A DNA stretch of 64,000 nt from Candidatus Daviesbacteria bacterium (GCA_028715175.1 JAQUSJ010000001.1:472368-536367), one strand, 5' to 3'. Shown: positions 1-55,718, counted from the stretch's first letter. The notes: a model not told the origin generated them from the letters alone. Program-made: numbers and translations.

Positions 1-743
1 ATCCTATAGCTATAGCCTCCAAGGCGTCCCCCTGGAGGCTGCCGGATTACAGGGTAGAGTTAAAGAATATTAACAGCTTTAGATTTATAGTAGCAGCAAT
101 TGAGTATGAAATTAAACGGCAAATTGAAGCTTTGGAAAAGAGAGAGAAACTTACTCAGGAAACCAGAGGTTGGAATGAGGACAAAAAGTGTACGTTTTTG
201 CAAAGAAGCAAAGAAGAAGCTCATGATTACCGCTATTTTCCCGAACCGGACCTGCCGGAACTCCGAATTGAAGAGTCTAGAGTCAAAAGCCTGGAGTCAA
301 GTTTGCCAGAATTGCCTTGGGATAAACTAAAAAGATTTGCGGAGGAATATGGTATTAGTAAAAATGATGCCCAGATTCTTTCTGAGACAAAAGAACTGGC
401 CGAGTTTTTTGAAAGTGCTTTAGAACATGGTAAAAAACATGGTGTTTCTATCAAAGAAGTGGCAAATTATATAGTTAACAGAAAGCCCGACATAAGTTCT
501 GTACTGCCAACACAGATTATAGAGGAATTAAAGGGTAAAAAAGTGGGAATAATAGAGAGCGAGAAAGAACTTGAAAAACTCGCTGAACAAGCTGTCAAAG
601 AAAATGCGAACGCAGTTCTGGATTATAAGAAAGGTAAAGAGGCAGCGCTGCAAGTTTTAATAGGCGGAGTAATGAAATTATCTTTAGGTAAAGCAGACAT
701 TGCTAAATTGAAGCCGATTCTGGAAAAATTACTTAAATCTTAA
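1..743 (+). CDS. gatB: Asp-tRNA(Asn)/Glu-tRNA(Gln) amidotransferase subunit B, C-terminal part (5' end lies upstream of window)
   Basis: Frame 3 is open from nt 3 with no stop; GatB signature YRYFPEPDLP and C-terminal GatB/YqeY helical domain; EYEIKRQIEALEK matches GatB. Confidence 0.85.
   Translation, partial: PIAIASKASPWRLPDYRVELKNINSFRFIVAAIEYEIKRQIEALEKREKLTQETRGWNEDKKCTFLQRSKEEAHDYRYFPEPDLPELRIEESRVKSLESSLPELPWDKLKRFAEEYGISKNDAQILSETKELAEFFESALEHGKKHGVSIKEVANYIVNRKPDISSVLPTQIIEELKGKKVGIIESEKELEKLAEQAVKENANAVLDYKKGKEAALQVLIGGVMKLSLGKADIAKLKPILEKLLKS
14..40. repeat. 27-bp GC-rich hairpin element, family A copy 1 (reverse orientation), in-frame inside gatB (encodes ASKASPWRL)
   Basis: agcctccaaggcgtccccctggaggct; stem AGCCTCCA/TGGAGGCT; reverse complement of the core seen at 4343, 39792 etc. 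Confidence 0.7.
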
Positions 744-780: not shown

Positions 781-3700
781 ATGACAATCACAAAGACTAT
801 TATGCCTAAATTTGTTCACCTTCATGGCCACACCCAATATTCTCTTTTAGACGGACTGTCAAAAGTTCCGAAATTAATTAAGACTGTTAAAGATTTAGGT
901 ATGGAATCAATAGCCATTACGGATCATGGGGTAATGTATGGGGCAATCGAGTTCTACAAAGCTTGCCGGGAAGCCGGGGTAAAACCTATTGTCGGGGTAG
1001 AAATGTATGTTGCCAAAAGATCCCATAAAGACAAAGAAGGAAAACTTGACAGCGAACCGTTTCATTTAACAGTACTGGCTAAAAATTACCAGGGATATCT
1101 TAACTTGATGAAGCTGACAACTATTGCCCATTGTGACGGATACTACTACAGACCAAGGGTGGATAAAGCTTTATTGAAAGAGTTTCACGAAGGATTAATA
1201 GCTTTGTCAGGCTGTCCTGCAGGAGAATTTGTCAGGTCTTTAAATACGAGAGACCCCAAAAAGGCCGAGGAAGTAATCAAAAATTATTTAAGTATATTTG
1301 GCGAAGGTAACTTTTATCTGGAATTGCAAAGTCATCCATATCAGCAGTCTTTGGACGAAGCGGTGGACGATACAGTCAAAAAGGACTTGCAGGAGATACT
1401 GGATATACAAACCCAAACCTGGAGTACGGTAAAGCAGTTATCGAAAAAAATTGGCATACCAATAGTTGGAACCAACGATTACCACTATGTCGCAAAAGAA
1501 GATGCCCAGGCTCAAGATGCATTGCTTTGTGTCCAAACCGGAAAATTACTTAGCGATGTTGTAAGGCTTCGGATGATTGATACCCCGGATTATTTTGTGA
1601 AATCACCGGTTGAGATGGCGGAAAATTTTAAAGATATTCCGGAAGCTCTGGAAAATACTGTAAAAATTGCGAAACTGATTGATTTGGAAATTCCATTGGG
1701 GGTAGCCCGGTTTCCGGTATTTGAAACTCCAAACAAGGCTTCCTCAATGGAGTATTTGCGGGAGATAACATATCAAAAAGCAGCTGAAAAATTGGAATTG
1801 ACAAAAGAAATAAAAGAGCGTTTGGATTTTGAACTTAGCGTGATTGAGAAAAAGAAATATGCGGACTATTTTCTGGTAGTTGCGGATTTTATGGACTGGG
1901 CTCACCAGCGGGGGATTATTACCAACACCAGGGGTTCTGCGGCAGCTTCAATGGTTTTATATTGTTTAGGGGTAACTAACCTAAACCCTTTGGGTTATTT
2001 GCTGCCTTTTGAGCGTTTTTTAACAGTCTATCGGCCTTCTCTGCCGGATATTGATGTTGATATAGCTGATGACCGCCGTGATGAAGTGATAGATTATGTG
2101 ATGAAAAAATATGGTAAAGATCGGGTTGCTCACATTGTGACTTTTGGAACCATGATGGGCCGGGCTGCCATTAGGGATGTGGGCAGGGTTATGGGGATGT
2201 CTTACTCCGATGTAGACAGGATTGCCAAATTAGTTCCGCCCCCCCATCAGGGTTTTCACAAACCTTTAGGGTTGGCAGTTAAAGAAGTGCCGGATTTGCA
2301 GAATTTATATAGAAGCGATCCTCAAATTAAGAAACTTTTGGATTTGGCTGCCAGGATTGAAGGTACTGTGCGTCATGCTTCGGTGCATGCAGCGGGTATT
2401 GTTATTGCCCCGGATGAAATAACCAATTTTACCCCTTTGCAAAAAGAATCCAGCGGAGAAAGACTGGTATCCCAATATGACATGTTTGCGGTAGAAGATG
2501 CAGGTTTGGTGAAAATGGACCTTTTGGGTATCAGAAATTTATCAATTTTGGGTAAAGCCGTTGAATTTGTCAAAGAAAATAGAGGAATAAGCATTGACCT
2601 GGATAAAATCCCCCTGGATTACAAAAAGGCTTTTGAGCTTTTGGCCAAAGGCGAAACCATGGGAGTTTTTCAGCTGGAAGGTTCGGGTATGACCAGATAT
2701 GTAACAGAACTAAAACCAACCAGTATTACCGATATTCAGGCCATGGTGGCTTTATACCGCCCGGGGCCTTTGGGGGTAATCCCGGAATATATTGCCCGGA
2801 AGCATGACCCGAAAAAAGTGAAATTTTTTGACCCCCGGATGAAAGATTATACCGAAGCCTCCTTGGGTTTGCTGGTTTATCAGGACGATGTATTGCTTAC
2901 AGCTATTAACATTGCCGGTTATTCCTGGGAAGAGGCTGATAAGTTCAGGAAAGCCATGGGTAAAAAAATTCCCTCTGAAATGGCCAGGCAAAAAGACAAG
3001 TTTATTGAAGGGTGTATTAAAAACGGCATGAGAGCGGAAAAAGCGGAAGAGTTATTTGCCATGATTGCTCCCTTTGCAGCTTATGGATTTAATAAAGCTC
3101 ATGCGGCCAGTTATGCCATGATTGCTTATCAAACAGCTTACATGAAAGCAAGCTTCCCTGTTGAGTTTATGGCAGCGGTTATGACGGCCGAATCAGGAGA
3201 CAGCGATAAGATTGCTTCGGCGATTGAAGAATGTAAAAGACTTCAGATTGTAGTTTTGCCGCCTGATGTCAATAAATCGGGAATCGGTTTTTCTCTGGAG
3301 AAACTAAAAGAGCTTTCGCAGGCCGATCTGGAGCGAAGCTTGAGTGTTGGAGAAAGCGGTATAAAGCAGGGTATTAGGTTTGGCTTATCAGCTGTGAAAA
3401 ATGTCGGTATTTCTGCGATTGAATCAATCATTCTGGCAAGAGAAGATGGAGAGTTTGTGTCTTTGGCGGATCTTTGTTCACGGGTTGATACCCGTTTGGT
3501 GAATAGAAAAACCCTGGAAAGTTTAATTAAAGCAGGCGCCCTGGATCATTTGGGGAGCCGGGCCGGACAGCTTTTGGTTTTGGACTCTTGTTTGGAGCAG
3601 TCTCATAAGCAAAGTAGGGCAAGATTGTCGGGACAGGTGCTGCTGTTTGACAGCGAAGAGGATCAGGGAGTATTTGCTGTGAAACTGCCGGATGTTGCCG

Positions 3701-4344
3701 AGTTGCCTCTTGAACAATTGCTGGTTTTCGAAAAAGATCTTTTGGGTTTTTACCTGCATGAACCCCCTTTTCTTGCAGCACTTCAAAAATTAACCAGGTT
3801 TGTATCTATCAAACTTTCCGATTTGAGCGAGGAAAGTATCGGGAAAACTTTGAAACTGGGAGGAGTTATTGTTGCGGTTAAAAAAGTATTAACCAAAAAA
3901 GCAAGCAAGGAAATGGCATTTGTTAAAATTTCCGATGGGATTTTTAGTTTAGAAGTGGTAGTTTTTCCCAAAATATTTGAAACAAGCAAAGAATTTTTGG
4001 TTTCGGATCAGGTTGTTTTAATCTCCGGACGTGTTGAGAAAAGAGAAGAGGAGCTTTCTTTAATTGTTGAAAAAATTGCCCCGTTTGATCCGGAGAGCGC
4101 GGGTGATCTGCAGCAAAATAGCTTAATGGTTGAGATTTATATTCCGGCAGGGGCAGATATATCGGTATTACAAAATATAAACAGAACTCTGCGGGGATTT
4201 CCGGGAGGCACGCCGGTTGCGTTATTTTTAAATAGCGACAAGGGTGTAAGACGTATGGATTTGCCGTTTTCTGTTGATCCGCAACCTTTACTCGAGGAAA
4301 AAGTTAAAGAGATTCTAGGCAAAGAGGCTTTTAAAATAGTCTAG
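781..4344 (+). CDS. dnaE: DNA polymerase III alpha subunit
   Basis: 1187 aa; N-terminal PHP domain (FVHLHGHTQYSLLDG), polymerase core and C-terminal OB fold; typical DnaE length. Confidence 0.95.
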   Translation: MTITKTIMPKFVHLHGHTQYSLLDGLSKVPKLIKTVKDLGMESIAITDHGVMYGAIEFYKACREAGVKPIVGVEMYVAKRSHKDKEGKLDSEPFHLTVLAKNYQGYLNLMKLTTIAHCDGYYYRPRVDKALLKEFHEGLIALSGCPAGEFVRSLNTRDPKKAEEVIKNYLSIFGEGNFYLELQSHPYQQSLDEAVDDTVKKDLQEILDIQTQTWSTVKQLSKKIGIPIVGTNDYHYVAKEDAQAQDALLCVQTGKLLSDVVRLRMIDTPDYFVKSPVEMAENFKDIPEALENTVKIAKLIDLEIPLGVARFPVFETPNKASSMEYLREITYQKAAEKLELTKEIKERLDFELSVIEKKKYADYFLVVADFMDWAHQRGIITNTRGSAAASMVLYCLGVTNLNPLGYLLPFERFLTVYRPSLPDIDVDIADDRRDEVIDYVMKKYGKDRVAHIVTFGTMMGRAAIRDVGRVMGMSYSDVDRIAKLVPPPHQGFHKPLGLAVKEVPDLQNLYRSDPQIKKLLDLAARIEGTVRHASVHAAGIVIAPDEITNFTPLQKESSGERLVSQYDMFAVEDAGLVKMDLLGIRNLSILGKAVEFVKENRGISIDLDKIPLDYKKAFELLAKGETMGVFQLEGSGMTRYVTELKPTSITDIQAMVALYRPGPLGVIPEYIARKHDPKKVKFFDPRMKDYTEASLGLLVYQDDVLLTAINIAGYSWEEADKFRKAMGKKIPSEMARQKDKFIEGCIKNGMRAEKAEELFAMIAPFAAYGFNKAHAASYAMIAYQTAYMKASFPVEFMAAVMTAESGDSDKIASAIEECKRLQIVVLPPDVNKSGIGFSLEKLKELSQADLERSLSVGESGIKQGIRFGLSAVKNVGISAIESIILAREDGEFVSLADLCSRVDTRLVNRKTLESLIKAGALDHLGSRAGQLLVLDSCLEQSHKQSRARLSGQVLLFDSEEDQGVFAVKLPDVAELPLEQLLVFEKDLLGFYLHEPPFLAALQKLTRFVSIKLSDLSEESIGKTLKLGGVIVAVKKVLTKKASKEMAFVKISDGIFSLEVVVFPKIFETSKEFLVSDQVVLISGRVEKREEELSLIVEKIAPFDPESAGDLQQNSLMVEIYIPAGADISVLQNINRTLRGFPGGTPVALFLNSDKGVRRMDLPFSVDPQPLLEEKVKEILGKEAFKIV

Positions 4345-4370
4345 CCTCCAGGGGGACGCCTTGCAAGGCT
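4343..4370. repeat. family A hairpin element copy 2, overlapping the dnaE stop codon
   Basis: agcctccagggggacgccttgcaaggct; dnaE TAG at 4342-4344. Confidence 0.7.
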
Positions 4371-4418
4371 AAGCGGGTGCAGGTTGCCAGCAGGCTTAGA
4401 TTATGTTAGTATTCCTTA

Positions 4419-4733
4419 ATGATTTCAGTGAAAGTTGACGAGCAAAACATACATATTGGAGATACTGTAAGAGTACATAGTAAGGTGGTAGAAGGAACAA
4501 AAAGCAGAGTGCAGATTTTCGAAGGAATTTTAATCAGGCTTCGGGGCCGGGATGTTAATAAAACTTTCACTGTCCGTAAAATTGGAGCAGGAGGGATTGG
4601 GATTGAAAGAACCTGGCCACTGGATTCAAATTCTATTGTTAAAATTGAAGTTAAAAAAAAGGCCGGAAAAGTTAGAAGATCAAAGCTTTATTTTTTAAGA
4701 GGATTGACCGGTAAAAGCGCTGTAAGAGTTTAA
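4419..4733 (+). CDS. rplS: 50S ribosomal protein L19
   Basis: 104 aa; conserved [28 protein letters not shown]...GKVRR.KLY.LR pattern of L19. Confidence 0.9.
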
Positions 4734-4752
4734 TCATTCTTCCAATAATTCA

Positions 4753-5112
4753 ATGTCCAATACCGATATCGGAAATAAAGGAGAAGAACTGGCGTGCAAG
4801 TATCTTAAGAAACTGGGGTATAGAATTCTTGAAAGGAACTTTCGGATCAGGGGTGGGGAAATAGATATTGTAGCCAAAGATAGGGATACTTTGGTGTTTG
4901 CGGAGGTAAAAACCCGATACTCTCATGAGTTTGGTTTACCTTGTGAGTCCATGACGCCATGGAAAATTCGCTCACTTTTAAAAACTGCCAGATTTTATAT
5001 CCAAAAAATCAGCTGGGGTAATAGGGAATACAGGTTGGATTTTGTGGGGGTGGATTTTGCTGAGTCCGGGGATAATCCCAAAATAGAACTAATTAAGAAT
5101 ATCATCTTATAG
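4753..5112 (+). CDS. YraN/UPF0102 family endonuclease
   Basis: 119 aa; GGEIDIVAKD..LVFAEVKTR motif typical of UPF0102; common neighbour of rplS/rnhB. Confidence 0.7.
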   Translation: MSNTDIGNKGEELACKYLKKLGYRILERNFRIRGGEIDIVAKDRDTLVFAEVKTRYSHEFGLPCESMTPWKIRSLLKTARFYIQKISWGNREYRLDFVGVDFAESGDNPKIELIKNIIL

Positions 5113-5117
5113 TATTA

Positions 5118-5145
5118 CGCTCCAGGGAAACGCCTTGCGAAGCTG
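5118..5145. repeat. family A hairpin element copy 3 (degenerate) between convergent genes
   Basis: cgctccagggaaacgccttgcgaagctg, directly after the yraN stop (5110-5112). Confidence 0.6.
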
Positions 5146-5149
5146 CTCC

Positions 5150-6031
5150 TTATTTTTCCGCTACCACAAAGGGGATTTCTTCCCAGTCTTTAACTTTTCT
5201 AATTTTTTTATTAATTTCCCAAACTGTTTCCAAAAGTTTTGGATCAAGTTTTAAACTCTTAGCCCGGCCAATTAAGGCAACGATATCTTTAGGAAAACAT
5301 TTCCCCCCAAACCCTTTGGATGTAGTTACATCCAGGTGTGAGTTAAAAATCCGGCGGTCTGCCACAACAATGCTTTTAACTTCTTCATATTTAATACCTA
5401 AAGCCTGGCATAAATCATACATCTGATTGGCAAAAATTACCTTGGTGGCCAAAAAAGCATTAGCCATATATTTGACCATTTCGGCAGTTGTAGTATCTGT
5501 TTGGAAAACCTTGGTTTTCGGGAATCTTTGTCTGTATAAAGAGATCAATCTTCGGGAAACCGTATCGTTATTCGCTCCTACAACATTGCGGTCTGATTTT
5601 ATAAAATCCTCTAAATAATTTGCCTCTGTTAAAAATTCCGGGTTCATGGCAAAGTTGCTTTTTGGGTATTTTTTTTCTAAAGCAACAGTGGTGCCCGGTA
5701 CAACAGTTGATTTAATCACAATGATTTTGTCGGTATTGTCGGTATATTGGGTAATCTCTTTAATGTTTTCTTCGATGATGGAAAGGTCAATCCCCGACTC
5801 GTCTTCTTTCATCGGCGTGGGTAAACAAATAAAAATAAACTCGCTTGATGCAACTACGCTTTCTAAAGACTCGGTGTTTTTGTATTTGTCATAAAATCTA
5901 ATTTCATATTTATCTTTTATCTCCGGTTGGGAAAAGCCGTATGCCAGGGCCTGACCGACTATTCCGTAACCGATAATTCCAAGTTTGGCGGGGTTGATTA
6001 GTTCTGCGGAGTCCTCTTGTTGCTTATTCAT
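5150..6031 (-). CDS. UDP-glucose/GDP-mannose dehydrogenase family protein, short form lacking the C-terminal UDP-binding domain
   Basis: Start moved to ATG at 6031 (MNKQQ...). Rossmann GIIGYGIVG and catalytic GGKCFPKD motif present. 294 aa is shorter than canonical ~400 aa, so possibly truncated. Confidence 0.65.
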   Translation of the reverse strand: MNKQQEDSAELINPAKLGIIGYGIVGQALAYGFSQPEIKDKYEIRFYDKYKNTESLESVVASSEFIFICLPTPMKEDESGIDLSIIEENIKEITQYTDNTDKIIVIKSTVVPGTTVALEKKYPKSNFAMNPEFLTEANYLEDFIKSDRNVVGANNDTVSRRLISLYRQRFPKTKVFQTDTTTAEMVKYMANAFLATKVIFANQMYDLCQALGIKYEEVKSIVVADRRIFNSHLDVTTSKGFGGKCFPKDIVALIGRAKSLKLDPKLLETVWEINKKIRKVKDWEEIPFVVAEK

Positions 6032-8645: not shown

Positions 8646-8710
8646 ATGGCGAAAAAGCCTCTTAAGAAAAATTGAAGAAGTTAATGGCACGGAGCCACTA
8701 TTTCTTTTTG

Positions 8711-8782
8711 TGATCCGGCAGGGATTCGAACCCTGGACCAAGAGCTTAAAAGGCTCCTGCTCTACCGCTGAGCTACCGGACC
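8711..8782 (-). tRNA. tRNA-Lys (anticodon TTT)
   Basis: Reverse complement GGTCCGGTAGCTCAGCGGTAGAGCAGGAGCCTTTTAAGCTCTTGGTCCAGGGTTCGAATCCCTGCCGGATCA; anticodon loop CTTTTAA; T loop TTCGAAT. Confidence 0.8.
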
Positions 8783-9030: not shown

Positions 9031-9072
9031 AAACTAATAGAACCAATAGCTTAAAAGTCCGGCTGCGCCGGA

Positions 9073-9094
9073 TCTACCGCTGAGCTACCGGACC
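9073..9094 (-). repeat. 22-bp duplicate of tRNA-Lys(TTT) nt 1-22, followed by a CCGGC/GCCGG hairpin
   Basis: tctaccgctgagctaccggacc is identical at 8761-8782 and 9073-9094; the two copies flank the GIY-YIG gene. Confidence 0.65.
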
Positions 9095-10791: not shown

Positions 10792-11274
10792 GTGAAAAAA
10801 TTTGTTATTCAGATCATACTTTTACTTGTATTTATTGTTGGGGGAGTATATTTATATAAATCAAGCGGACAAATTTCCGGTTTGCCTTTTATACCTTCCG
10901 GGCCTGTATTTAAGCAAATACAAATTAACGGATCAAAATTTAATGTTGAAATAGCGGATACGCAGGAAAAAAGAGCTAAAGGTTTGGCCGGAAGAAGTAG
11001 TTTGGCATCGGATTCGGGAATGCTGTTTATTTTTTCCGAGCCGTCTAAACATTCATTTTGGATGAAAGGTCTTTTATTCCCGCTGGATTTTATATGGATT
11101 AGCGGGGATAAAGTAGTAGGTATTTTACAAAATGTTCCGCCGCCTGCTCAGGGTCAACCGGATTCGTCTTTGCCGATTTACCAGTCAAGCGTAGAGGTGG
11201 ATAAGGTTTTGGAAGTTAATGCCGGAGTAGTCCAGCGTTTAAACATTAAAGTAGGGGACATCCTGACTCAATGA
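10792..11274 (+). CDS. DUF192 domain protein
   Basis: N-terminal TM; KGLAGR..L....GMLFIF......FWMKGLLFPLDFIW pattern of DUF192/COG1430. Confidence 0.65.
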   Translation: MKKFVIQIILLLVFIVGGVYLYKSSGQISGLPFIPSGPVFKQIQINGSKFNVEIADTQEKRAKGLAGRSSLASDSGMLFIFSEPSKHSFWMKGLLFPLDFIWISGDKVVGILQNVPPPAQGQPDSSLPIYQSSVEVDKVLEVNAGVVQRLNIKVGDILTQ

Positions 11275-12767
11275 TTGAAGTTCTGCCAATTAGATTACTA
11301 ACAGATGAGGATGCGCCGATTTTCGGCAGCTTAAATTTGAATTTGGCAAAGCTGTTTCGGTCCGGAGTTCCTGTCGGGTCCGGGTTAGTTGTCACGCCGC
11401 CGCAGTTTAAACTCAAAACAGTTTTGGAAAATTATGATTTTGGCACCAAGGAGGTTTTTCAACAGTCTCTGACCCTGGTTAAAAGAGAAATACGTTCAAT
11501 TCCTGTCCCGGATGTTTTAATTAACGGTGTCAACCCAACCCACAGAAATTTTTTGCTTAATGGAGAAAAGATTAGCTCAATTAAAAATCTTTGGTTGAAA
11601 TTATTATCAATTTGGATAGAGCAAATTGAAAACAAGTTATGGAATAACGGATTTTATCCGGGTATTACCAGGGACTTGGATCCGCAGATTGTGATTTTTG
11701 TGAAAAAAATGGAATCCTCAGGAAACGCTTATTATGACCAGTTGCAGGATGATGTAGAAGTTCAAGTAAAAACAGGGAAACTATATCCGAACGATCTCAA
11801 AAAGATTATAGAAATAGTCCAGATAGCCGATAAAAAACTTTTTATCCCTCACGAATATGAATGGGTACTGGATGGAGGGGTAAAATTAGTTGGTCTAAAA
11901 CAATATACTCCTTCTGTTACCATTGAGCCTACCCCTATAGTTGCAGGCTCCAGGGGAACGCCTTGCGAGGCTAGAAACGCCGTTAAAGTATTTCTCGACT
12001 TATCCGCCGGATTGACCTTTGAAAAAGAAGTTGACGGGATATATATCGCATCGGAAAAAATATTTGACCTGGATAACCCTTCGGAATCATTTGAAAATTT
12101 GGTTTCCAGATTAGTAGAAGGAGCTATGACTTTTCCAAACTCCCCTATTTTTTTAAAATTGGCAGATAAGTCAGAAGGTATGGGTAAAGTGCGCGGAACC
12201 TTGCGCTTGCTTCACCAGAAAAGTCTATTTGATCCGTTAGCGAAAGTTTTGGATTTTGCCCGACATAAAAAAGGCTTAACAAATGTTCATATAGTTGTGC
12301 CGTTTGTGAGGGGTGTAACTGAACTGCTGAAAATGAAAAGGGAGCTGGCTGTCCGGAAGCTCTCCAGGAAAAATTCCCTGCAGCTTTGGATGGAAGTGGC
12401 CGTGCCGGAGAATATTGTTAATCTGGAAGATTATCTGGTTGCCGGCATTGATGGGGTGGTTTTAAACCTGGATGAGCTTGTATCTTACTTAAATGGTGTT
12501 GATTGTTCGGAGGAAGATTTAGTATTTTACAAGAGTGAAGTTTCGGGGTTACTTAAGTTTCTGGAAGATGGGATTAAGCTTTTGCATAAGTCAAAAGTCC
12601 CTTTCATGGTCTATGGCAGCTTGGTTCTTACCCCAAAAGTGCTGGAATTTTTGGTGGAAAAAGGGGTTTATGGAGTGGTAGTGGAAAAATATGAAGCTCA
12701 CTCAGCTAAGGATTTACTACATCAAGCAGAAAAAAGGATGATTCTAAAAAGAGTGGATAGAATATGA
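11271..12767 (+). CDS. PEP-utilising enzyme family protein (PPDK_N-like ATP-grasp plus C-terminal TIM-barrel domain, no central phosphohistidine domain)
   Basis: N-terminal FGSLNLNLAKLFRSGVPVGSGLVVT resembles G.K.aNL..l...GvpVP.GF; C-terminal VVLNLDELVSYL resembles fSIGTNDLTQ; no GGxTSHAAI motif. Confidence 0.45.
   Translation: MIEVLPIRLLTDEDAPIFGSLNLNLAKLFRSGVPVGSGLVVTPPQFKLKTVLENYDFGTKEVFQQSLTLVKREIRSIPVPDVLINGVNPTHRNFLLNGEKISSIKNLWLKLLSIWIEQIENKLWNNGFYPGITRDLDPQIVIFVKKMESSGNAYYDQLQDDVEVQVKTGKLYPNDLKKIIEIVQIADKKLFIPHEYEWVLDGGVKLVGLKQYTPSVTIEPTPIVAGSRGTPCEARNAVKVFLDLSAGLTFEKEVDGIYIASEKIFDLDNPSESFENLVSRLVEGAMTFPNSPIFLKLADKSEGMGKVRGTLRLLHQKSLFDPLAKVLDFARHKKGLTNVHIVVPFVRGVTELLKMKRELAVRKLSRKNSLQLWMEVAVPENIVNLEDYLVAGIDGVVLNLDELVSYLNGVDCSEEDLVFYKSEVSGLLKFLEDGIKLLHKSKVPFMVYGSLVLTPKVLEFLVEKGVYGVVVEKYEAHSAKDLLHQAEKRMILKRVDRI
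11946..11972. repeat. family A hairpin element copy 4, in-frame inside the PEP-enzyme-like CDS (encodes GSRGTPCEA)
   Basis: ggctccaggggaacgccttgcgaggct. Confidence 0.65.
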
Positions 12768-34351: not shown

Positions 34352-37300
34352 ATGGCTATAGACAAGATAGTTATCAAAGGAGCTAGAGAACATAACCTTA
34401 AAAACGTTGACCTGGAAATTCCCAAAAACAAGCTGGTAGTTTTAACAGGAATTTCCGGTTCAGGCAAGTCTTCTTTGGCTTTTGATACCCTTTATGCCGA
34501 AGGTCAAAGAAGGTATGTAGAATCACTTTCTTCCTATGCCAGGCAGTTTTTGGGGGTAATGGATAAACCTGATGTGGATTTGATTGAAGGGCTTTCTCCG
34601 GCCATTTCTATTGACCAAAAAGGTGTTTCACATAATCCCCGTTCAACTGTCGGTACGACCACCGAAATCTATGATTATTTGCGGCTGCTTTTTGCCCGGG
34701 TTGGCCATCCACATTGTCCTGTCTGCGGCAGAGAAGTTGCCAAGATGAGCGTGGAACAGATAGTGGAGAAAGTAATAAGTGACAAGAAACAAGTAACAAG
34801 TAAGGGGAAAAGAATTATGATTTTGGCGCCGGTGGTTAAAGATAGGAAAGGGGAATATTCCCAGCTTTTTGAAGACTTTAGAAAAAAAGGATTTTCTAAA
34901 GTTAGAGTTGATGGACAAGTAAGAGATCTTGATGACTCGCCTCGCTCCGCGGGCGGAGCGGGAGATCTGGTGTTAATTAAAACTAACAAACACACGATTG
35001 ATTTGGTAGTAGACAGATTAGTGTTAGATAAAACTGTCATTCTGAGCGAAGCGAAGAATATAAAGTTATATCCTTCGGCTACGCCTCAGGATGACAAGAG
35101 TAAAAATAGTGTTCATCTTTCGACAAGCTCAGGACAAGAGAACAATATGTACTCAAGATTGTCACAAAGTATTGAGACAGCGCTTAAATTAGGCGAAGGA
35201 TCAGTGATTATCTCGCAAGTTCTGGATGCTTCTTTAGAATTTCCACAGTACCCTAAAAAAATGGATGACCGTCTTTATTCGGAAAGGTTTGCCTGTCCGT
35301 TGGACAGCATTTCTCTTCCGGAAGTTGAGCCAAGACTTTTATCTTTCAATTCGCCTCATGGAGCTTGTTCCGTCTGCGCCGGACTGGGTAGTCTTTTGGA
35401 GATAGATGAGACAGCGGTTTTAAATCCAATTCTTTCTATTGCGGAAGGCGGAATACTTCCCTGGTCAAGACTTGCTTCAAGTGATACCTGGTTTAGCAGG
35501 TTGATTGAAGCTGTTGGGAAAAAATACGGTTTTGATTTAAATACCAGACTGGGAAATTTAACAACTGAGGCTAAAAAGATTTTGCTTTTCGGCAGCGGAC
35601 AAGATCAATTTAAAGTGGAAGGTAGAAACAGACAAGGCAGATGGACCCATTTTTATTCGGAGTTTCAGGGCTTGGTAGCTTATCTTAAGCAAAGATATCA
35701 GGAATCGGAATCAGACTTTGTTAAGGCCGAAATTGAAAAATATATGGTGAAGGAAGTTTGTCCGAAATGTAAGGGTGCAAGATTAAAGGATGAGGCTCTT
35801 TCAATCACCATAGACGGATTAAATATTGCTGAAGTCACCAGCCAATCAATAGTGCAAGTGCTGGAATGGATATCACACCTCGGAGGTGTGATATCGGAAC
35901 GCGAAGCGCAAATTGCCACACCGATCGTAAAGGAAATTATATTACGCTTAAGTTTTTTAATTGATGTTGGTTTGGATTATTTAACGCTTGACCGTCCTGC
36001 TTCGACTTTGGCCGGGGGGGAATCACAACGGATCAGGCTGGCTTCTCAAATTGGTTCAGGGCTCTCCGGGGTACTGTATGTCTTAGATGAACCATCCATT
36101 GGTTTGCACCAGCGGGATAACCGTCGCTTGATTGAGACTTTAAAAAAGCTGAGAGATTTGGGTAATACGGTTATTGTTAATGAACATGATGCTGAAACAA
36201 TGGAGGCTGCGGATTTGCTCATAGAGATTGGTCCGGGAGCTGGTGAACACGGAGGCAACATTATCTTTATAGGAACTCCGGAGCAAATGAAAAAAAATCC
36301 GAATTCTTTGACAGGGCAATATTTATCCGGCAAGAAAAAAGTGACTCCGATATTTCATCGGAGTCATCCTGATCCGGCTTTACCGGAGAAGGATCTCTCG
36401 AATAACAGGGCTTTAACCGTATTTGGAGCCACAGAGCACAATTTAAAAAATATCAACGTTTCCTTCCCTTTGGGGCAATTTATTGCTGTGACAGGTGTTT
36501 CCGGTTCAGGTAAATCAACTTTAATTCATGATATTTTGTACAAAGCTTTAGCGCAAAAAATATACAGGTCAAGAGAAAAATCCGGAGGACACAAAGGGAT
36601 GGAAGGAGTAGAAAATATAGATAAAGTTGTTTTGGTGGATCAGTCGCCGATTGGCCGTACCCCCCGCAGCAATCCAGCCACTTATACCGGCGCATTCACT
36701 TTTATCAGAGATTTATTTGCACAGTCTCCTGAAGCGAAAATAAGGGGATATGGACCGGGCAGGTTTTCATTCAATGTCAAAGGAGGAAGATGTGAGGTTT
36801 GCGAAGGCGAAGGTACTCTTAAAATCGAAATGCAATTTTTGCCGGATGTTTATGTTACTTGTGAGTCGTGTAACGGCGCAAGGTATAACAGGGAGGCTTT
36901 GGAAATTAATTTTAAGGATAAAAACATAGCGGAAGTGTTGGATATGACGGTAGAAGAGGCCTTGAGGTTTTTTGAGAATATTCCTCATATTAAAAACAAG
37001 CTGCAGGTTTTATTTGATGTCGGGCTTGGCTATATTAAACTGGGGCAACCGGCCCCCACACTGTCAGGAGGAGAGGCTCAACGGATTAAACTGTCTTCGG
37101 AGCTCTCCAAACGGCCCACAGGGCACACCATGTATATTTTAGATGAACCAACCACCGGACTCCATTTTGCAGACATTGAAAGACTCTTGACGATTTTGCG
37201 AAAACTGGTAAATTACGGCAATACTGTGATCATTATTGAGCACAATTTAGATGTCATTAAAAATACGGATTGGATTGTAGACCTTGGGCCGGAGGGCGGA

Positions 37301-37419: not shown

Positions 37420-39312
37420 ATGATTAAAAAGATTTCTGTTTTAATTATTTTCTTAATTCTTTTGGTTTTGCCACAGACTGTTTTTGCAGAAGGGGAATTT
37501 GCCACATCTTATGATGTTTTGTATGACGTTTCGGAGGCTGGAGTGACTACAGTCACAGAAAAAATTACCCTCAAAAATCTGACCTCACAATACTATGCCA
37601 ACCAGTTCAAATTAACTATTGGGGCAACCCAAATTTCCGATATTAAGGCTGCAGACCCCGGAGGAGCATTGGATGTAACCTCAGAGCAAAAAGATACAAC
37701 CACCACGATTAGTGTTAAATTTAACCAGCAGGTGGCGGGTTTGGGTAAGAGCTTGCCGTGGACTCTTTCTTTTAAGTCAAAAGATTTTGCTGAAAAAGTC
37801 GGTAAGGTTTGGGAGGTTAGGGTTCCAAGAATTTCTTCAACCACGAATTTGGAAGCCTATAACCTGACTCTTTCGGTACCGCAGAGTTTCGGCCAACCTT
37901 CTTTGATTAGTCCGAACCCCAAAAACCAGACTGTTTCCTCCGGAAGAATATTTTTGACTTTTGATAAAAGCCAGCTTACATCATCCGGTATTTCTGCAAA
38001 TTTCGGCAGCATGCAGATTTTTGATTTTGATTTGAGTTACCATCTGGAAAATAAAAACCTGGTGCCGATATTAACAAACATCGCGCTTCCTCCGGACACA
38101 TCTTTCCAGGATGTCATTTTTCAGCGCATAGACCCAAAGCCGCTTAACGTGACAGTAGACAGCGATGGTAACTACCTGGCCTGGTATAGATTAAACCGCG
38201 GACAAAAAATCGATGTTAAAGTTTTTGGCTCGGCAAAACTTTATACAAACTCTAAGGTAAAGCTCCCTGTGCTGGATGAGGCCTTAAGAAAAAAATATAC
38301 CGAATCTCAAAAATACTGGGAAAAAGATAACCCCCAAATTATGAGTAAGCTGGATGAAATTTTGGGTGACAGTCCCCCGGGCGATTTTGAAGGTAAAGCT
38401 AAGCTCATTTTTCAATACGTAGTGAATTCCCTGAAATATGATTCCGGCCGGTTAAAAAATAGTGATATTGAACGGCTTGGAGCTGTTACGGTTTTAGATA
38501 ACTCCAATTCTGCTGTTTGCATGGAATTTACCGATTTATTTCTGGCTTTATCCAGAGCGGCCGGCATTCCGGCCAGGGAATTAAACGGGTATGCGTACAC
38601 CGAGAATACAACGCTGCGGCCGCTATCTTTAACAAAAGATGTTTTACATGCATGGCCGGAGTATTGGAACGAACGGCGCGGATGGGTTATGGTTGATCCT
38701 ACCTGGGAAAATACCACCGGCGGCGTGGATTATTTTAATAAGCTGGATCTTAATCATTTTGTTTTTGCGGTTAAGGGTTCATCTTCACAGGAGCCAATTC
38801 CTGCCGGTTCGTATAAATATGCGGGTCAGGACAGTCATGATGTAAAAGTAACCTTATCGGAAAATGATTTTCTTGGTAAACCGCAGATTGATGTTGTGAT
38901 TGATGCTTTAAGCCCGATCTTGTCCGGTTTCCCCGGGGTTATCAAGGTGAAAGTTACAAATACAGGCAATGCTGTTTATCCCTCTGCGCCTCTTCAGATT
39001 TCCGCTGATAAACTCACAGCGCTTAACGGAGAGAATCAAAAAACAGGCCCTATACCCCCCTTTGGAAACGGCGAATTCAATTTTAATATCCGGACCAAAT
39101 CGCTTTTTGATTCTTATAAGGATCAAATTGTGATTAATATAGGCAGCCAGAAGTTTACTAAGGATGTGGTAGTAAAACCCTTTATCGTATTCCAACCTGT
39201 TTCTCTTTTGATAGCCGGAATATCTGTTGCTATGGTACTAATCTATTTTGTAGTGCTGGGCGGCCATATTTACCGTAAAAGAATTAAGAATGAACCTGTC
39301 AAAAAATCATGA
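37420..39312 (+). CDS. secreted transglutaminase-like domain protein with a C-terminal TM anchor
   Basis: Signal peptide; transglutaminase core Cys in AVCMEFTDLFLALSRAAGIPARELNGY, His in DVLHAWPEYW, Asp in VDPTW. Confidence 0.7.
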   Translation: MIKKISVLIIFLILLVLPQTVFAEGEFATSYDVLYDVSEAGVTTVTEKITLKNLTSQYYANQFKLTIGATQISDIKAADPGGALDVTSEQKDTTTTISVKFNQQVAGLGKSLPWTLSFKSKDFAEKVGKVWEVRVPRISSTTNLEAYNLTLSVPQSFGQPSLISPNPKNQTVSSGRIFLTFDKSQLTSSGISANFGSMQIFDFDLSYHLENKNLVPILTNIALPPDTSFQDVIFQRIDPKPLNVTVDSDGNYLAWYRLNRGQKIDVKVFGSAKLYTNSKVKLPVLDEALRKKYTESQKYWEKDNPQIMSKLDEILGDSPPGDFEGKAKLIFQYVVNSLKYDSGRLKNSDIERLGAVTVLDNSNSAVCMEFTDLFLALSRAAGIPARELNGYAYTENTTLRPLSLTKDVLHAWPEYWNERRGWVMVDPTWENTTGGVDYFNKLDLNHFVFAVKGSSSQEPIPAGSYKYAGQDSHDVKVTLSENDFLGKPQIDVVIDALSPILSGFPGVIKVKVTNTGNAVYPSAPLQISADKLTALNGENQKTGPIPPFGNGEFNFNIRTKSLFDSYKDQIVINIGSQKFTKDVVVKPFIVFQPVSLLIAGISVAMVLIYFVVLGGHIYRKRIKNEPVKKS

Positions 39313-40628
39313 GTTGGCTCCGCTTTAAATCCGAAATTCCGCGAAGACCAGGTGTCTATATATTTAAAGATAAAGACGGGAAGATTTTATATGTCGGAAA
39401 GGCTGTTGATCTTTATCAGCGCGTTACTTCATACGGTGTCAACCTAACCCACACCAGGGGTGGGATACGCATACACCGTGATAATACTAAAGTAGCAACT
39501 CTTGTTGAACATATCGCCAAAGTGGAAACAATTACAGTTGAATCGGAGCTTGAAGCTTTGATCCTGGAAGCCAATCTTATTAAAAAATATTTGCCTCCGT
39601 TTAATGTCAGACTCACAGATGACAAGGATTATTTGTACATTGCAGTCAGTAAAGAAGCTTTCCCAAAAATTGTGACTGCCAGGAAAAAAGATCTCCAGAT
39701 AATGAAAAAACATTGGGGTCCATTCCCTTCAAGCAGAACTGTCAGGGAAACATTAAAATCATTAAGAAAAGTCTTCCCCTGGTGCGCTGCAGCTTCGCAA
39801 GGGGACGCCTTGCGAAGCAAAACACGATTCCGTCCATGTTTTTATTATCACCTGAAACTATGTCCAGGAGCGTGCATTGGCTTAATAAGTAAAGAAGAAT
39901 ACAACAAAATTATTAACAGGTTTTCCAAATTTATGGACGGAAAAAAGGAGCAACTGATTACCGAACTGACTGCCGAAATGAAGCAAGCAGGGCAAAAACA
40001 AAAATTTGAGGAAGCAGCTAAGATCAAAAAAACAATCGAGGGTATTTTCTATTTAACCCAAACCAACAGGACCGGGCTTTATTTAGAAAATCCTAATTTT
40101 TTACAGGATGAAGGAAGCCTTGCCCTTGAGCAATTAAAAAAAGATTTAAACCTGGGGAAACTACCTGAAAGGATAGAAGGGTATGATATTTCAAATATCC
40201 AGGGCTATGAGGCCACCGGTTCAATGGTTGTTTTAACTAAAGGGGAAATTGATAAATCGCAGTACAGGAAATTTAAGATTAGCTCGTCAGCCGGCGGATT
40301 CAGTCGTCCAAACGATGTGGCTATGATACGTGAGGTGCTGCGGCGCAGATTAAAGCATACCGAGTGGCCTTTGCCTGATTTAATATTAGTAGACGGCGGT
40401 AGAGGACAAGCTAGAGCTGTTCAGGTAACAATTCAACAATTTAGCAATGCAGCAATTCCCGTATTTGGTCTGGCAAAACGGATGGAATGGCTTTATCCGC
40501 CTAAAGGTGAAATTCTAAAGCTTCCAAGAAAAAGTCTTTCTTTGAAATTGTTGCAAAAGCTGCGTGATGAGGCTCACAGGTTTGCCATTAGCTATCACAG
40601 GAAACTTCGTGATAGGATTATAGTATAA
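39309..40628 (+). CDS. uvrC: excinuclease ABC subunit C, short form lacking the C-terminal (HhH)2 domain
   Basis: 439 aa; N-terminal GIY-YIG (GVYIFKDKDGKILYVGKA, ELEALILEANLIKKY), UvrBC motif (KFEEAAKIKKTIEGI), RNase H-like endonuclease domain (EGYDISN); no HhH at the C-terminus. Confidence 0.8.
   Translation: MSWLRFKSEIPRRPGVYIFKDKDGKILYVGKAVDLYQRVTSYGVNLTHTRGGIRIHRDNTKVATLVEHIAKVETITVESELEALILEANLIKKYLPPFNVRLTDDKDYLYIAVSKEAFPKIVTARKKDLQIMKKHWGPFPSSRTVRETLKSLRKVFPWCAAASQGDALRSKTRFRPCFYYHLKLCPGACIGLISKEEYNKIINRFSKFMDGKKEQLITELTAEMKQAGQKQKFEEAAKIKKTIEGIFYLTQTNRTGLYLENPNFLQDEGSLALEQLKKDLNLGKLPERIEGYDISNIQGYEATGSMVVLTKGEIDKSQYRKFKISSSAGGFSRPNDVAMIREVLRRRLKHTEWPLPDLILVDGGRGQARAVQVTIQQFSNAAIPVFGLAKRMEWLYPPKGEILKLPRKSLSLKLLQKLRDEAHRFAISYHRKLRDRIIV
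39792..39818. repeat. family A hairpin element copy 5, a perfect 11-bp stem, in-frame inside uvrC (encodes ASQGDALRS)
   Basis: gcttcgcaagg-ggacg-ccttgcgaagc. Confidence 0.75.
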
Positions 40629-49893: not shown

Positions 49894-49931
49894 TTGACAA
49901 ATATCTAACGATCGTCAATAATTTGTCAACA
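49894..49931. promoter_or_regulatory. 38-bp nested palindrome R1 (TTGACAAA-TATCTA-ACGATCGT-CAATAA-TTTGTCAA) overlapping the -35/-10 of the PaaX-like gene
   Basis: Outer IR ttgacaaa/tttgtcaa, inner acgatcgt; contains a TTGACA -35 box. Confidence 0.55.
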
Positions 49932-49937
49932 TACATT

Positions 49938-50465: not shown

Positions 50466-50488
50466 CGATCGTCAATTGTTTGTCAACA
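50451..50488. promoter_or_regulatory. 38-bp nested palindrome R2 (35/38 identical to R1), overlapping the stop codons of the convergent PaaX-like and glucokinase genes
   Basis: ttgacaaaaatctaacgatcgtcaattgtttgtcaaca. Confidence 0.55.
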
Positions 50489-51310: not shown

Positions 51311-52273
51311 ATGAAAATTGGGTTTATTGGACTGGGCAGAATGGGCAAAAATATGGTTTTGCATCTTTTGGAAAAAGGGGTCGAGGTAGTAGCTTGGAAC
51401 AGGTCTCCTGAGCCTCGCGAAGAATTAAAAAAGGAAGCTAATACGCTTGCAAGGGGACGCCTTGCGAGGCTAACGGCTGCAGAAGACTTGGATGGGTTGA
51501 TTGGTAAACTTGATGCCCCTAGAATCATATGGTTAATGGTGACTGCTGGACCGGCAGTTGATGAACTTCTAGCCCAACTTGCCAATAAGTTAAATCCAGG
51601 GGATTTGGTAATTGATGGCGGTAATTCTTTCTACAAAGATACGATTAGAAGGGCAAATGAGTTAAAAAGCCATGGTATCCATTTTATGGATGCGGGTACC
51701 TCGGGCGGTATAGAAGGAGCAAGAAACGGTGCATGTATTATGGTGGGGGGTTCACAGGAGGATTTTAAGAGGGTTGAACCTGTTTTAAAGGTGGCTGCCG
51801 TCCCTGAAGGCTATGCTCATCTGGGTCCAGCGGGTAGCGGACACTTTGCCAAAACCGTTCATAATGGTATTGAATATGGCATGATGGAAGCAATTGGAGA
51901 AGGAGCAGCCATCCTGAAATATTCACCGTTTAACTATGACCTGCGGGAAGTATTTAGAATTTATAATAACGGATCAATCATTGAATCACGTCTGGTAGGC
52001 TGGTCTTTGGCAGAATTTAGGAGTGATCCTGATTTATCCAATATATCCTCTGTAATTGGATCAGGTGGAGGTGCTGGAAAAATCAAGGGGGAAGCACACT
52101 GGACACTAAAGTTGGCACAAAAGCTGGGGATAGATACACCGGTAATTGAGGCTTCAGTCAAAGTCAGAGATAACTCAGACAAAGATAAAGAAAATTCTCC
52201 AAACAGTTTCCGTAACAAAGTAGTTGCTGCCATGCGTTGGCAATTCGGCCGCCATCCTGTTAAAAAATCTTAA
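51311..52273 (+). CDS. gnd: 6-phosphogluconate dehydrogenase (decarboxylating), short-form Gnd
   Basis: 320 aa; Rossmann IGFIGLGRMGKNM; 6PGDH catalytic region; contains an in-frame family A element. Confidence 0.8.
   Translation: MKIGFIGLGRMGKNMVLHLLEKGVEVVAWNRSPEPREELKKEANTLARGRLARLTAAEDLDGLIGKLDAPRIIWLMVTAGPAVDELLAQLANKLNPGDLVIDGGNSFYKDTIRRANELKSHGIHFMDAGTSGGIEGARNGACIMVGGSQEDFKRVEPVLKVAAVPEGYAHLGPAGSGHFAKTVHNGIEYGMMEAIGEGAAILKYSPFNYDLREVFRIYNNGSIIESRLVGWSLAEFRSDPDLSNISSVIGSGGGAGKIKGEAHWTLKLAQKLGIDTPVIEASVKVRDNSDKDKENSPNSFRNKVVAAMRWQFGRHPVKKS
51445..51471. repeat. family A hairpin element copy 6, in-frame inside gnd (encodes LARGRLARL)
   Basis: gcttgcaaggggacgccttgcgaggct. Confidence 0.7.
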
Positions 52274-53578: not shown

Positions 53579-53585
53579 ATAGTTA

Positions 53586-53613
53586 CGCACCCAAGGGGAC
53601 GCCTTGCGAGGCT
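53586..53613. repeat. family A hairpin element copy 7, between the zwf stop and the IMPase start
   Basis: cgcacccaaggggacgccttgcgaggct; overlaps the zwf stop codon at 53612-53614. Confidence 0.65.
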
Positions 53614-55036
53614 AAATTCTGCAAAAATCCATTGAAGGTTCAAGCCAAATCCTTCCGTCTTTTTCTATTAACTCATCAGCTTCTTTTGGCCCCCAGGACC
53701 CGGGTTCGTAAATTGCGGGTTTCCCGCGGACTGCAATTAAGGGATCTATAAAGGCCCATTGTGCTTCCACTTCCTCCGCATCATTAAAGAATGTCTGATC
53801 GCCTCTGATTGTATCGATCAGCAAACGTTCATACGGGTCGGGAATCTTGTGCGTATATGGATTGGGTCTGTAGCAATACTGCATATATTCCGGTTGCAAT
53901 TTTGCATCATAGCCCGGTACTTTGGTTAAAATCTTAAGCACAATTCCCTCATTCGGCTGAATACGGTAGATTAAAACATTTGGTTCATCCCCGCTATCTG
54001 CGCTTTTGAATAGTCTGTTAACATGATTTTTAAAGACAATAGAGATTTCCGTCACTGTTTGCTTTAACTTTTTCCCGGCTCTGATATAAATCGGGACATC
54101 CTTAAAACGTTCGTTGTTAATATAAGTTTTTAAGGCATAGAATGTATCTGTATTGGACTGCAGAGAAACATTTTCTTCTTTTCGATAACCCTCATATTGA
54201 CCGTAAACTACCTTGTCAGGCATAGGTATCAGGTTTTTGAGAATCTTGATCCTCTCTTTGGTGACTGCCTCATTAGAGAATTCACTTGGTGCATCCATGG
54301 CGGCAAAAGCCAGCATCTGCAGTTGATGATTTTGACCAACATCTTTTAACGCCCCTACCTGATCATAATACCCGCCCCGTTTGCCAATGCCGAAATCCTC
54401 GGCAGCAGCAATTTGGATGTGGTCAATATAATCTTTATTGATAAGGGGTTCAAAAATATCATTGGCAAATCTAAAGGTAAGAATATTTTGCAGAGTTTCC
54501 TTGCCTAAATAATGATCCAGCCGGAAAATTTGATCCTCTGTAAAATATTTTAAAAGCAGCTTGTTTAGCTTCTTAGCTGAGGGAAGATTACAACCAATAG
54601 GTTTTTCAATCATTAACCTGATCCAACCCTTGTTTTGTTTGTTCAAATTATTTTTTTGTAAATTCTCGAAAATTTGATGATAGAGTTCAGGGTAGGTAGC
54701 CAGATAAAAAATTCTATTGCCATGTTTTAAGATATTACTTAGCTTTTCATATAAATTTTGGTCTTGAATTTGACCGCTTAGATATGTAAATTTCTTACAA
54801 AGTCTTTTAAAAACTTCTTCTTTAATTTCATGTTTATGATGGATATTTTCCAGATGCAAAACGGTGTGAACATAATGCTTTAATTCCTCATCAGACATTT
54901 CTTTTCTGGCAATACCGACAATAGTCATATCAGATGGCAAAAGGTCTTTTTCCTCCATATCATAAAGAGCCGGAATCAATTTGATCTGGGCGAGATTTCC
55001 GGTAATGCCAAAAATAATTAAGGTAAAAGAGTCCAT
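53612..55036 (-). CDS. zwf: glucose-6-phosphate 1-dehydrogenase
   Basis: 474 aa; N-terminal GDLA-type NADP site; RLDHYLGKE signature. Confidence 0.9.
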   Translation of the reverse strand: MDSFTLIIFGITGNLAQIKLIPALYDMEEKDLLPSDMTIVGIARKEMSDEELKHYVHTVLHLENIHHKHEIKEEVFKRLCKKFTYLSGQIQDQNLYEKLSNILKHGNRIFYLATYPELYHQIFENLQKNNLNKQNKGWIRLMIEKPIGCNLPSAKKLNKLLLKYFTEDQIFRLDHYLGKETLQNILTFRFANDIFEPLINKDYIDHIQIAAAEDFGIGKRGGYYDQVGALKDVGQNHQLQMLAFAAMDAPSEFSNEAVTKERIKILKNLIPMPDKVVYGQYEGYRKEENVSLQSNTDTFYALKTYINNERFKDVPIYIRAGKKLKQTVTEISIVFKNHVNRLFKSADSGDEPNVLIYRIQPNEGIVLKILTKVPGYDAKLQPEYMQYCYRPNPYTHKIPDPYERLLIDTIRGDQTFFNDAEEVEAQWAFIDPLIAVRGKPAIYEPGSWGPKEADELIEKDGRIWLEPSMDFCRI

Positions 55037-55677: not shown

Positions 55678-55718
55678 GTGTAGCTTCACTCCTACCTCCG
55701 AGGTGGGATACAAATTGC

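Follow-up and report, generated by a model that had tools for sequence, protein, structure and literature searches.

A short TAG-ended hairpin repeat of Candidatus Daviesbacteria, probably of the REP type, at gene ends and within genes

The DNA analyzed here is a stretch of 64,000 nt from Candidatus Daviesbacteria (GCA_028715175.1, JAQUSJ010000001.1:472368-536367; hereafter, the window), which is 94–97% identical to Candidatus Daviesbacteria STB_119 (L017). It carries seven copies, denoted c1 to c7, of a short hairpin-forming repeat, family A, that is probably of the repetitive extragenic palindromic (REP) type. An earlier note on this DNA had placed three family A copies on gene ends. This holds for c1, at the end of dnaE and next to rplS, for c2, between the convergent yraN (UPF0102) and a UDP-glucose dehydrogenase-family gene, and for c6, between zwf and the inositol monophosphatase (IMPase) gene, all six gene identities being confirmed by Pfam; the other four copies, however, are located in frame inside genes.

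Copy c1 (4342..4371, plus strand; TAGCCTCCAGGGGGACGCCTTGCAAGGCTA) straddles the end of dnaE as had been noticed, with limits now refined such that the dnaE stop codon, TAG (4342-4344), forms the first three bases of the copy. Copy c2 (5115..5146, plus strand), a degenerate one (TTACGCTCCAGGGAAACGCCTTGCGAAGCTGC), occupies 32 of the 37 intergenic bases separating the stop codons of yraN (5110-5112) and the convergent dehydrogenase gene (5150-5152). At full length, it starts 2 nt past the yraN TAG and ends 3 nt short of the dehydrogenase stop, and the 6-nt distance from the yraN stop reported earlier is that of the conserved core; c2 is retained at the equivalent site in STB_119. Copy c6 (53583..53615, plus strand; TTACGCACCCAAGGGGACGCCTTGCGAGGCTAA) lies over the zwf stop and the gap preceding the IMPase gene, again in agreement with the earlier description. 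The minus-strand TAG at 53612-53614, which is the other terminal TAG of the element, serves as the zwf stop, and c6, antisense to the neighboring genes, fills the 33-nt zwf/IMPase gap except for the 4 nt before the IMPase ATG at 53578. The preference for this ATG over a GTG start is well founded, given that orthologues begin with MNDQINL or MTKEIDL, comparable to MKDIDL, and that the extra VRNY resulting from the GTG start would be encoded by c6. A terminator scan of positions 4200-5400 and 53300-53900 called no hairpin followed by a T-run at c1, c2 or c6, consistent with the reported lack of a U-tract at the three gene-end copies.

The consensus of family A, derived from the window and related copies, is T-TAGCCTCGCAAGG-GGACG-CCTTGCGAGGCTA-A, an imperfect palindrome of approximately 31 nt (30–33 nt) that can form a stem-loop with a 13-bp stem and an asymmetric 5-nt loop. 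The palindrome begins with TAG whichever strand is read, with TAA or TAG after the far end, and the conserved terminal TAG is mostly preceded by T, a small number of copies having G instead (GTAGCC in L008; L016). In the window, the 22-nt consensus with up to 3 mismatches produced 5 matches versus 0.00 expected, an 18-nt degenerate core produced 8 versus 0.30 expected, and an nhmmer profile constructed from six copies recovered 7 copies at E <= 2e-5; by these measures, the three gene-end hairpins are indeed members of one family. Across 31 distinct copies, 77% of the stem cells are paired, compared to 32–59% when the partners are slid, and stem pair 9-27 alternates between UA (13), CG (9) and UG (8). 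In c7, one base is gone from each arm in a compensating manner, and the stem is still perfect. In a copy from L018 (693-735), the end of the 3' arm is tandemly duplicated (..CCTTGCGAGGCT TGCGAGGCT ATC), pointing to slippage within the palindrome. The exact 22-mer is present in 25 genome stretches, from Daviesbacteria, Blackburnbacteria, Levybacteria and unclassified metagenome-assembled genomes (MAGs), and in 50 metagenome stretches, many of these from groundwater; it was not found in viral contigs, and a phage origin was rejected on this basis.

The four remaining window copies are embedded in coding sequence. Copy c3 (11943..11974, plus strand) is in frame in a phosphoenolpyruvate (PEP)-utilising-enzyme gene (11271-12767) and encodes ..AGSRGTPCEA..; c4 (39790..39821, plus strand), with a perfect 11-bp stem at 39792-39818, is in frame in uvrC (39309-40628), where it encodes ..ASQGDALRSK.. 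in the UvrC loop bounded by FPWC and RPCFYYH; c5 (51442..51473, plus strand) is in frame in a gnd-like 6-phosphogluconate dehydrogenase gene (51311-52273) and encodes TLARGRLARL; and c7 (12..40, minus strand; AGCCTCCAGGGGGACGCCTTGGAGGCTAT) is in frame in gatB, which extends beyond the window start. An orthologous copy of c3 in L008 differs by 4–5 bases, and the orthologue of c7 is found in L017 (2843-2872, within gatB at 2180-3574). The genes hosting intragenic copies, which in relatives include fmt, dprA, a pseudouridine synthase gene, murT, glyA, topA and folA, are real housekeeping genes. All six frames are used, as represented by ASQGDALRG, SLARGRLARL, PRGTPCEA, ASQGVPLQG, SLARRPLARL and ASKASPWRL, and thus family A is conserved as DNA rather than as a peptide. 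A protein motif is ruled out, since the shared 22–30 nt yield unrelated peptides, with three reading phases represented among the window copies and six frames overall.

Two of the host proteins proved variable beyond family A. In the UvrC loop (FPWC...RxCFYYH), family A peptides are found in many Daviesbacteria orthologues, in both orientations, and the shortest loops hold only SGGRRA. The same loop (the equivalent of window positions 39780-39850; proteins P0122-P0240) is hypervariable, with other recurring peptide types (..QSRFVGS.P.RDWK.., ..GNRQQATG.. and ..FLDN..IAKTRQRPC) that look like translated repeats of other families at one hot spot. In gnd, a second insertion site approximately 25 residues past that of c5 accommodates 10–25 extra, repeat-like residues, for example, RKIATSPSAPRNDN and RNQDRHVADTLPLSGTIARDDN, in eight orthologues (P0031, P0043, P0046, P0055, P0067, P0082, P0095 and P0113), and these residues are absent from the product of the window gene. 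The orthologue of c5 in an 86%-identical protein (L026, 2154-2185) has the loop CCAGG instead of GGACG, extending the palindrome so that it is almost loop-less (GCTTGCAAGGCC A GGCCTTGCAAGGC). Judging from such copies and from the genome-specific variants beside transposase genes described below, the family A loop appears to evolve as a block.

The placement of copies relative to stop codons was assessed in a census of 96 copies, 38 from the window and genome loci and 58 from an independent metagenome sample. Long open frames harbor 22 of the 38 and 28 of the 58 copies, the host stop codon is contained in 7 and 9, and a further class within 12 nt of a stop codon numbers 4 and 5, respectively. 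Overall, about 52% of the copies are intragenic (4 of the 7 in the window), about 17% supply the stop codon of the host gene and 9% are within 12 nt of a stop. An insertion-site preference for gene ends, one of the two explanations put forward earlier, is therefore upheld in part: the zwf/IMPase gap does contain inserted repeat DNA, but with about half of the 96 copies intragenic, there is no preference for ends. The end placement is better explained by tolerance combined with the terminal TAG that the element itself carries on both strands. dnaE and zwf stop exactly on family A because the consensus has TAG as its terminus whichever strand is read. Translation in one of the three frames per strand is thereby halted at once, and therefore copies in that frame can be maintained solely at the extreme end of a gene. 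Accordingly placed copies recur in relatives: in L002 and L029, as in the window, dnaE ends with ...FKIV* or ...FKII* directly on the REP, and a single copy provides the stops of both convergent genes in L020, L002 and L029.

Comparison with relatives indicates that the repeat is inserted DNA. At the zwf/IMPase junction, two relatives at 72–77% protein identity, L027 and L028, lack the element; the gap, 33 nt in the window, measures 3 nt in L027, and in L028 the two genes overlap by 4 nt, that is, the related genomes retain the same junction, 30 nt shorter, as opposed to identical spacing. The C-terminus of the zwf product is ...FCRI* both with the element, in the window, and without it, in the two relatives, and therefore the TAG of the element merely replaced the native stop. 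The gnd product of the window has exactly 10 extra residues (TLARGRLARL) compared to orthologues of 310 aa, and a large class of orthologues of 319 aa has at the place equivalent to c5 a diverged 9-residue segment, QLKSGSENL, possibly an old family A copy. In three comparisons, the net insert is about 27–30 nt: +10 aa in gnd, +30 nt in the zwf/IMPase spacer and +9–10 aa in the transposase considered below. Duplication of a TA target would fit c6 but yields 29 nt, which is impossible for the in-frame copies.

A further feature of the flanks is the motif ATAG(T), located 0–4 nt upstream of the palindrome in 5 of the 7 window copies (c1, c2, c3, c6 and c7; for example, 5108-5114, 11936-11942 and 53577-53583) and also at the upstream REP of L029. 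TATAGT is present upstream at c2, c3 and c6, and at c7, TATAGC is directly duplicated. The motif was not observed in the copies of other lineages and may reflect a preferred target, an extended end of the element or a duplication; TATAGT was not called as a promoter and, at c3, occurs within a gene too, so a promoter reading was not adopted.

The other explanation offered in the earlier note was that the gene-end copies act at the RNA level as processing or stability hairpins within operons. In its broader form, the copies at dnaE, yraN and zwf would be functional RNA hairpins that block 3'-5' exonucleases, direct operon processing or terminate transcription independently of a U-tract, and such roles have been reported for some enterobacterial REPs. 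Copies c1 and c2 are on the sense strand directly past the upstream genes, where, like rho-independent terminators and enterobacterial REP stabilisers, they place a GC-rich hairpin right after a stop codon; the G-U stem pairs (7 GU at pair 13-23) fall on the strand carrying the GGACG loop; and REPs of other bacteria are mostly downstream of open reading frames (ORFs), with many argued to be transcribed (PMC3733652). However, the gene-end copies fold no better than shuffled sequences (c1, z -0.88; c2, z +0.12 at -8.8 kcal/mol; c6, z -0.53, and z -0.02 on the strand transcribed for zwf), and it is the intragenic c4 and c5 that fold best (c4, -21 kcal/mol, z -4.5). Furthermore, unlike terminators and stabilisers, the gene-end copies have no T-run, two of the three have degraded stems, and c6 is antisense to the flanking genes; relatives keep the zwf/IMPase junction without any hairpin; about half of the copies are within coding sequence, in all six frames; and a search of the window against Rfam 15 at the gathering score returned four tRNAs only, with family A unmatched. 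The RNA hairpin explanation thus finds no support in the sequence and we regard it as unlikely, any RNA effect of the gene-end copies being probably incidental.

A further indication of the nature of family A comes from a linked gene for a Y1 transposase. A Y1_Tnp gene beside gnd in L026 led to homologues in L002, L004 and L006, loci that had been retrieved by the element alone; in total, Y1_Tnp genes above the Pfam cut-off are located at family A copies in 3 of 25 loci from genomes and 4 of 50 from metagenomes, the linked proteins reaching 32–46 bits where the cut-off is 23. Within this transposase family, H95, H97 and Y155 (motifs PNHFH and RYIH) are invariant. Its predicted structure, with a predicted local distance difference test score (pLDDT) of 74, matched the TnpA proteins of IS608, IS200 and ISDra2 with a Foldseek probability of about 1.0, and the REP-associated tyrosine transposase (RAYT) of E. 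coli (4ER8) with 0.96, and the matches to PDB sequences in single-sequence and profile searches were only marginal (E 0.06 to ISDra2 TnpA). The subfamily yielded 7499 hits at E <= 1e-10, the best 120 of which are 64–100% identical.

An arrangement of REP, transposase gene and REP, present in related Microgenomates that include Daviesbacteria and Levybacteria, was identified in L002, L004, L006, L029-L032, L038, L056 and L068. At all loci inspected, a hairpin lies on both sides of the gene, the stop codon of which is the TAG or TAA of the downstream copy. The transposase ORF also contains an in-frame internal copy just past the catalytic RYIH motif; the REP-coded segment is kept in 118 of the best 120 homologues and corresponds to the lowest-confidence loop of the predicted structure. 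The flanking and internal copies show genome-specific variants: in L029, an identical 21-mer with the loop CGAGG is present at both flanking copies and the internal one; in L031, an identical 25-mer with the stem CCTTCCAAGG is shared by the upstream and internal copies; and in L006, both flanking copies have a GGTGG/CCACC loop and the internal copy has the family loop.

The Y1 transposase family also bears on the origin of c1. The gene order rplS-transposase-dnaE is found in L002, L029 and L030. In alignments, the end of dnaE and the left half of c1 match the dnaE-side REP of L029 and L002, the right half of c1 and the region upstream of rplS match the rplS-side REP, and the approximately 760 bp between the two REPs are missing from the window at dnaE/rplS. 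By this alignment, c1 is a solo REP at the position where relatives carry REP, transposase and REP between dnaE and rplS. The flanking REPs are direct repeats in L029, and therefore loss through REP-REP recombination is the simplest reading for c1: the transposase gene would have been lost by recombination between the two directly repeated flanking REPs. Alternatively, the gene may have been gained in the other lineage rather than lost from the window.

A second hairpin family, with the core CCTACCTCGGAGGTAGG / ACCTCGGAGGT, was observed in the window, with at least two related copies (55691-55707 and 35869-35895), and in L026 (2994-3010 and 3731-3747), where copies lie on both sides of another Y1 transposase gene (3037-3687) that lacks the family A segment. 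This suggests a second pair of REP and transposase in these genomes.

The same linkage could be read as that of an ordinary insertion sequence of the IS200/IS605 type, the solo hairpins being miniature derivatives of its ends. The nearest fold matches are the TnpA proteins named above, the protein is a Y1 HUH transposase with imperfect hairpins adjoining its gene, as in IS608 and ISDra2, it scores under the NCBIfam cut-off for RAYTs, and the gene contexts differ in L031 and L032. IS200/IS605 hairpins, however, are the two distinct ends of a multi-copy mobile unit that moves with its gene, whereas family A hairpins are scattered alone; the position between rplS and dnaE is conserved in three Daviesbacteria genomes; the transposase subfamily is very well conserved (65–88% identity); and, where the left and right ends of an insertion sequence are fixed, the flanking copies are direct repeats in L029 but inverted ones in L006. 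We consider this reading improbable, and it differs from a REP/RAYT system more in name than in mechanism.

The transposase argues against family A being a host-selected DNA recognition site, such as an uptake signal or a binding site of gyrase or a nucleoid protein, that is held close to its consensus by selection and not by transposition. Compatible with such a site are the core of about 9 bases, ACGCCTTGC, which is unchanged in all six plus-strand window copies, the conservation of the family over several Microgenomates lineages, its genome-maintenance hosts (uvrC, dprA and topA, and the adjoining dnaE) and the orientation of the window copies, the GGACG loop being on the plus strand, mostly of positive GC skew, in c1 to c6 and on the minus strand only in c7. 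This 6/7 bias is, however, not significant at n = 7, and neither is the orientation relative to host genes (15 same, 8 opposite). Moreover, the density is low, at 7 copies per 64 kb, c2, c3 and c6 are decayed, and the repeated linkage to the Y1 transposase, together with the genome-specific co-variation of flanking and internal copies, is predicted by a REP/RAYT system and not by an uptake or binding site. A selected site therefore seems very improbable.

Taken together, we estimate at roughly 0.8 the probability that family A is the REP-type repeat of a REP/RAYT system in Microgenomates of the Candidate Phyla Radiation (CPR), that is, a selfish repeat whose gene-end copies are incidental. By analogy with TnpA-REP of E. 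coli and with IS200/IS605, the Y1 (HUH) tyrosine transposase would recognize the hairpin in single-stranded DNA and spread or renew the copies. The copies survive where they are harmless: at stop codons, where the TAG of the element replaces the native stop and leaves the protein unchanged (zwf and dnaE); between convergent genes (yraN and the dehydrogenase gene); and in frame within protein loops, at the cost of 9–10 additional codons (gatB, uvrC and gnd in the window; fmt, dprA, murT, glyA, topA and folA in relatives). Effects on mRNA, such as protection of the 3' end or on translation, would be by-products and not the cause of the placement.

REP/RAYT systems have reportedly been the subject of work by Nunvar (2010), Ton-Hoang (2012) and Messing (2012). 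The closest parallels to family A are the GTAG-tagged REPs, the termini of which donate TAG to flanking ORFs, which lie no more than 20 bp from both ORF ends when between convergent genes, and a minority of which are intragenic, with uvr and dnaE among the host genes (Di Nocera et al. 2013, PMC3733652). Like these, family A is an imperfect palindrome of 20–40 nt with many copies per genome, its terminal TAG is often the stop of the flanking ORF, copies are found near both ends of convergent ORFs, and some are in frame, notably in replication and repair genes. The REPtron, in which REPs lie on either side of a RAYT gene (PMC3733652; Bertels et al. 2017, PMC5581495), has its counterpart in the Y1/HUH transposase gene flanked and overlapped by family A repeats, and REPtron deletion in some strains resembles the situation at c1. 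Unlike the GTAG REPs, family A belongs to CPR/Microgenomates, outside the phyla listed in PMC3733652, and its transposase ORF bears a conserved in-frame copy. A search of the literature available, pairing RAYT or REPIN with CPR taxon names, returned nothing relevant, the terms co-occurring only for an archaeal rbcL neighborhood.

Several points weigh against the assignment to a REP/RAYT system. Family A departs from textbook REPs in that about half of its copies sit inside genes, against the predominantly extragenic placement of GTAG REPs, the tag is TTAG in most cases and GTAG in only some, and the copies stand singly instead of forming REPIN doublets or clusters, the closest pair in the window being 774 nt apart and in the same orientation. 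The sole NCBIfam match of the transposase, the REP-associated tyrosine transposase NF047646, scores 35–56 bits, below the cut-off of 80, and fold similarity cannot separate a RAYT from an IS200-type TnpA; its activity on the hairpin is argued by analogy, and a Y1 transposase gene was not found in the 64-kb window. With respect to mobility, the comparisons do not fix the exact insert length or a target duplication, no filled/empty pair was found among near-identical genomes, STB_119 shares all four comparable copies, and a scan of metagenomes for an empty zwf/IMPase site, with degenerate flanks and a 1–30 nt gap, produced nothing.

A more far-reaching version, which we put forward as tentative and doubtful, is that this REP/RAYT system of Microgenomates has largely moved into coding sequence, with copies being renewed at the same sites. 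The same loops, that of UvrC and one in the N-terminal domain of the gnd product, hold family A peptides across deep divergences, decayed to varying degrees and with the loop in either orientation. Renewal could proceed through gene conversion or through homing to pre-existing copies, and the transposase gene may serve as a master copy or be self-regulated via its internal hairpin. We found no description in the literature of repeated renewal at the same sites for REPs.

In the habit of inserting in frame, family A is reminiscent of the Rickettsia palindromic elements (RPE), which were reportedly described by Ogata et al. in 2000 as in-frame insertions in housekeeping genes. In both cases, palindromes are accommodated in frame in functional housekeeping genes of a small genome, adding short peptides to loops. 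The RPEs are summarised in PMC3733652; RPE-1 is 100–150 bp long, and the short RPEs are CGTC-tagged and have no associated transposase, whereas family A is about 31 nt long, TAG-tagged and Y1-linked, and has no sequence similarity to them.

Some additional observations were made on the window and the loci compared. A 30-nt fragment at 9065-9094 shares 90% identity with the 5' portion of a tRNA-Lys gene 312 nt away (8710-8782, minus strand); it was not called as a tRNA by ARAGORN or Rfam and may have been left behind by an integration or duplication event at that gene. A 38-nt repeat with 92% identity (49894-49931 and 50451-50488) that contains the dyad TTGACAAA...TTTGTCAACA brackets an ORF at 49923-50465, an arrangement resembling an operator or promoter that occurs twice, or else the termini of a small cassette. 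Carriers of the element titled 'uncultured Gammaproteobacteria' are among L004, L010, L011, L013, L015, L016, L020, L022 and L025. In the same MAG series, the gnd orthologues of L027 and L028 are 73–77% identical to that of the window, and L030 has the transposase gene at the rplS-dnaE position of Daviesbacteria; these titles are probably wrong, and the genomes are probably those of Patescibacteria.

For annotation, family A sets stop codons (dnaE and zwf), creates false starts (the IMPase GTG) and adds about 10 residues to conserved proteins, and CPR gene callers and alignments should therefore mask or model such repeats. The gene-end hairpins need no new RNA signal. Donation of TAG and copies in repair genes are already known for GTAG REPs (PMC3733652), to which family A adds a case from CPR. 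The features worth following are the coding-sequence habit and the copy internal to the transposase. Work on REP/RAYT systems has, to our knowledge, been confined almost entirely to Proteobacteria; a family spread among Microgenomates, with half of it in frame in housekeeping genes and one copy inside the transposase gene itself, offers a compact case for how REPs are copied and for how far selfish DNA reshapes the proteins of minimal genomes.

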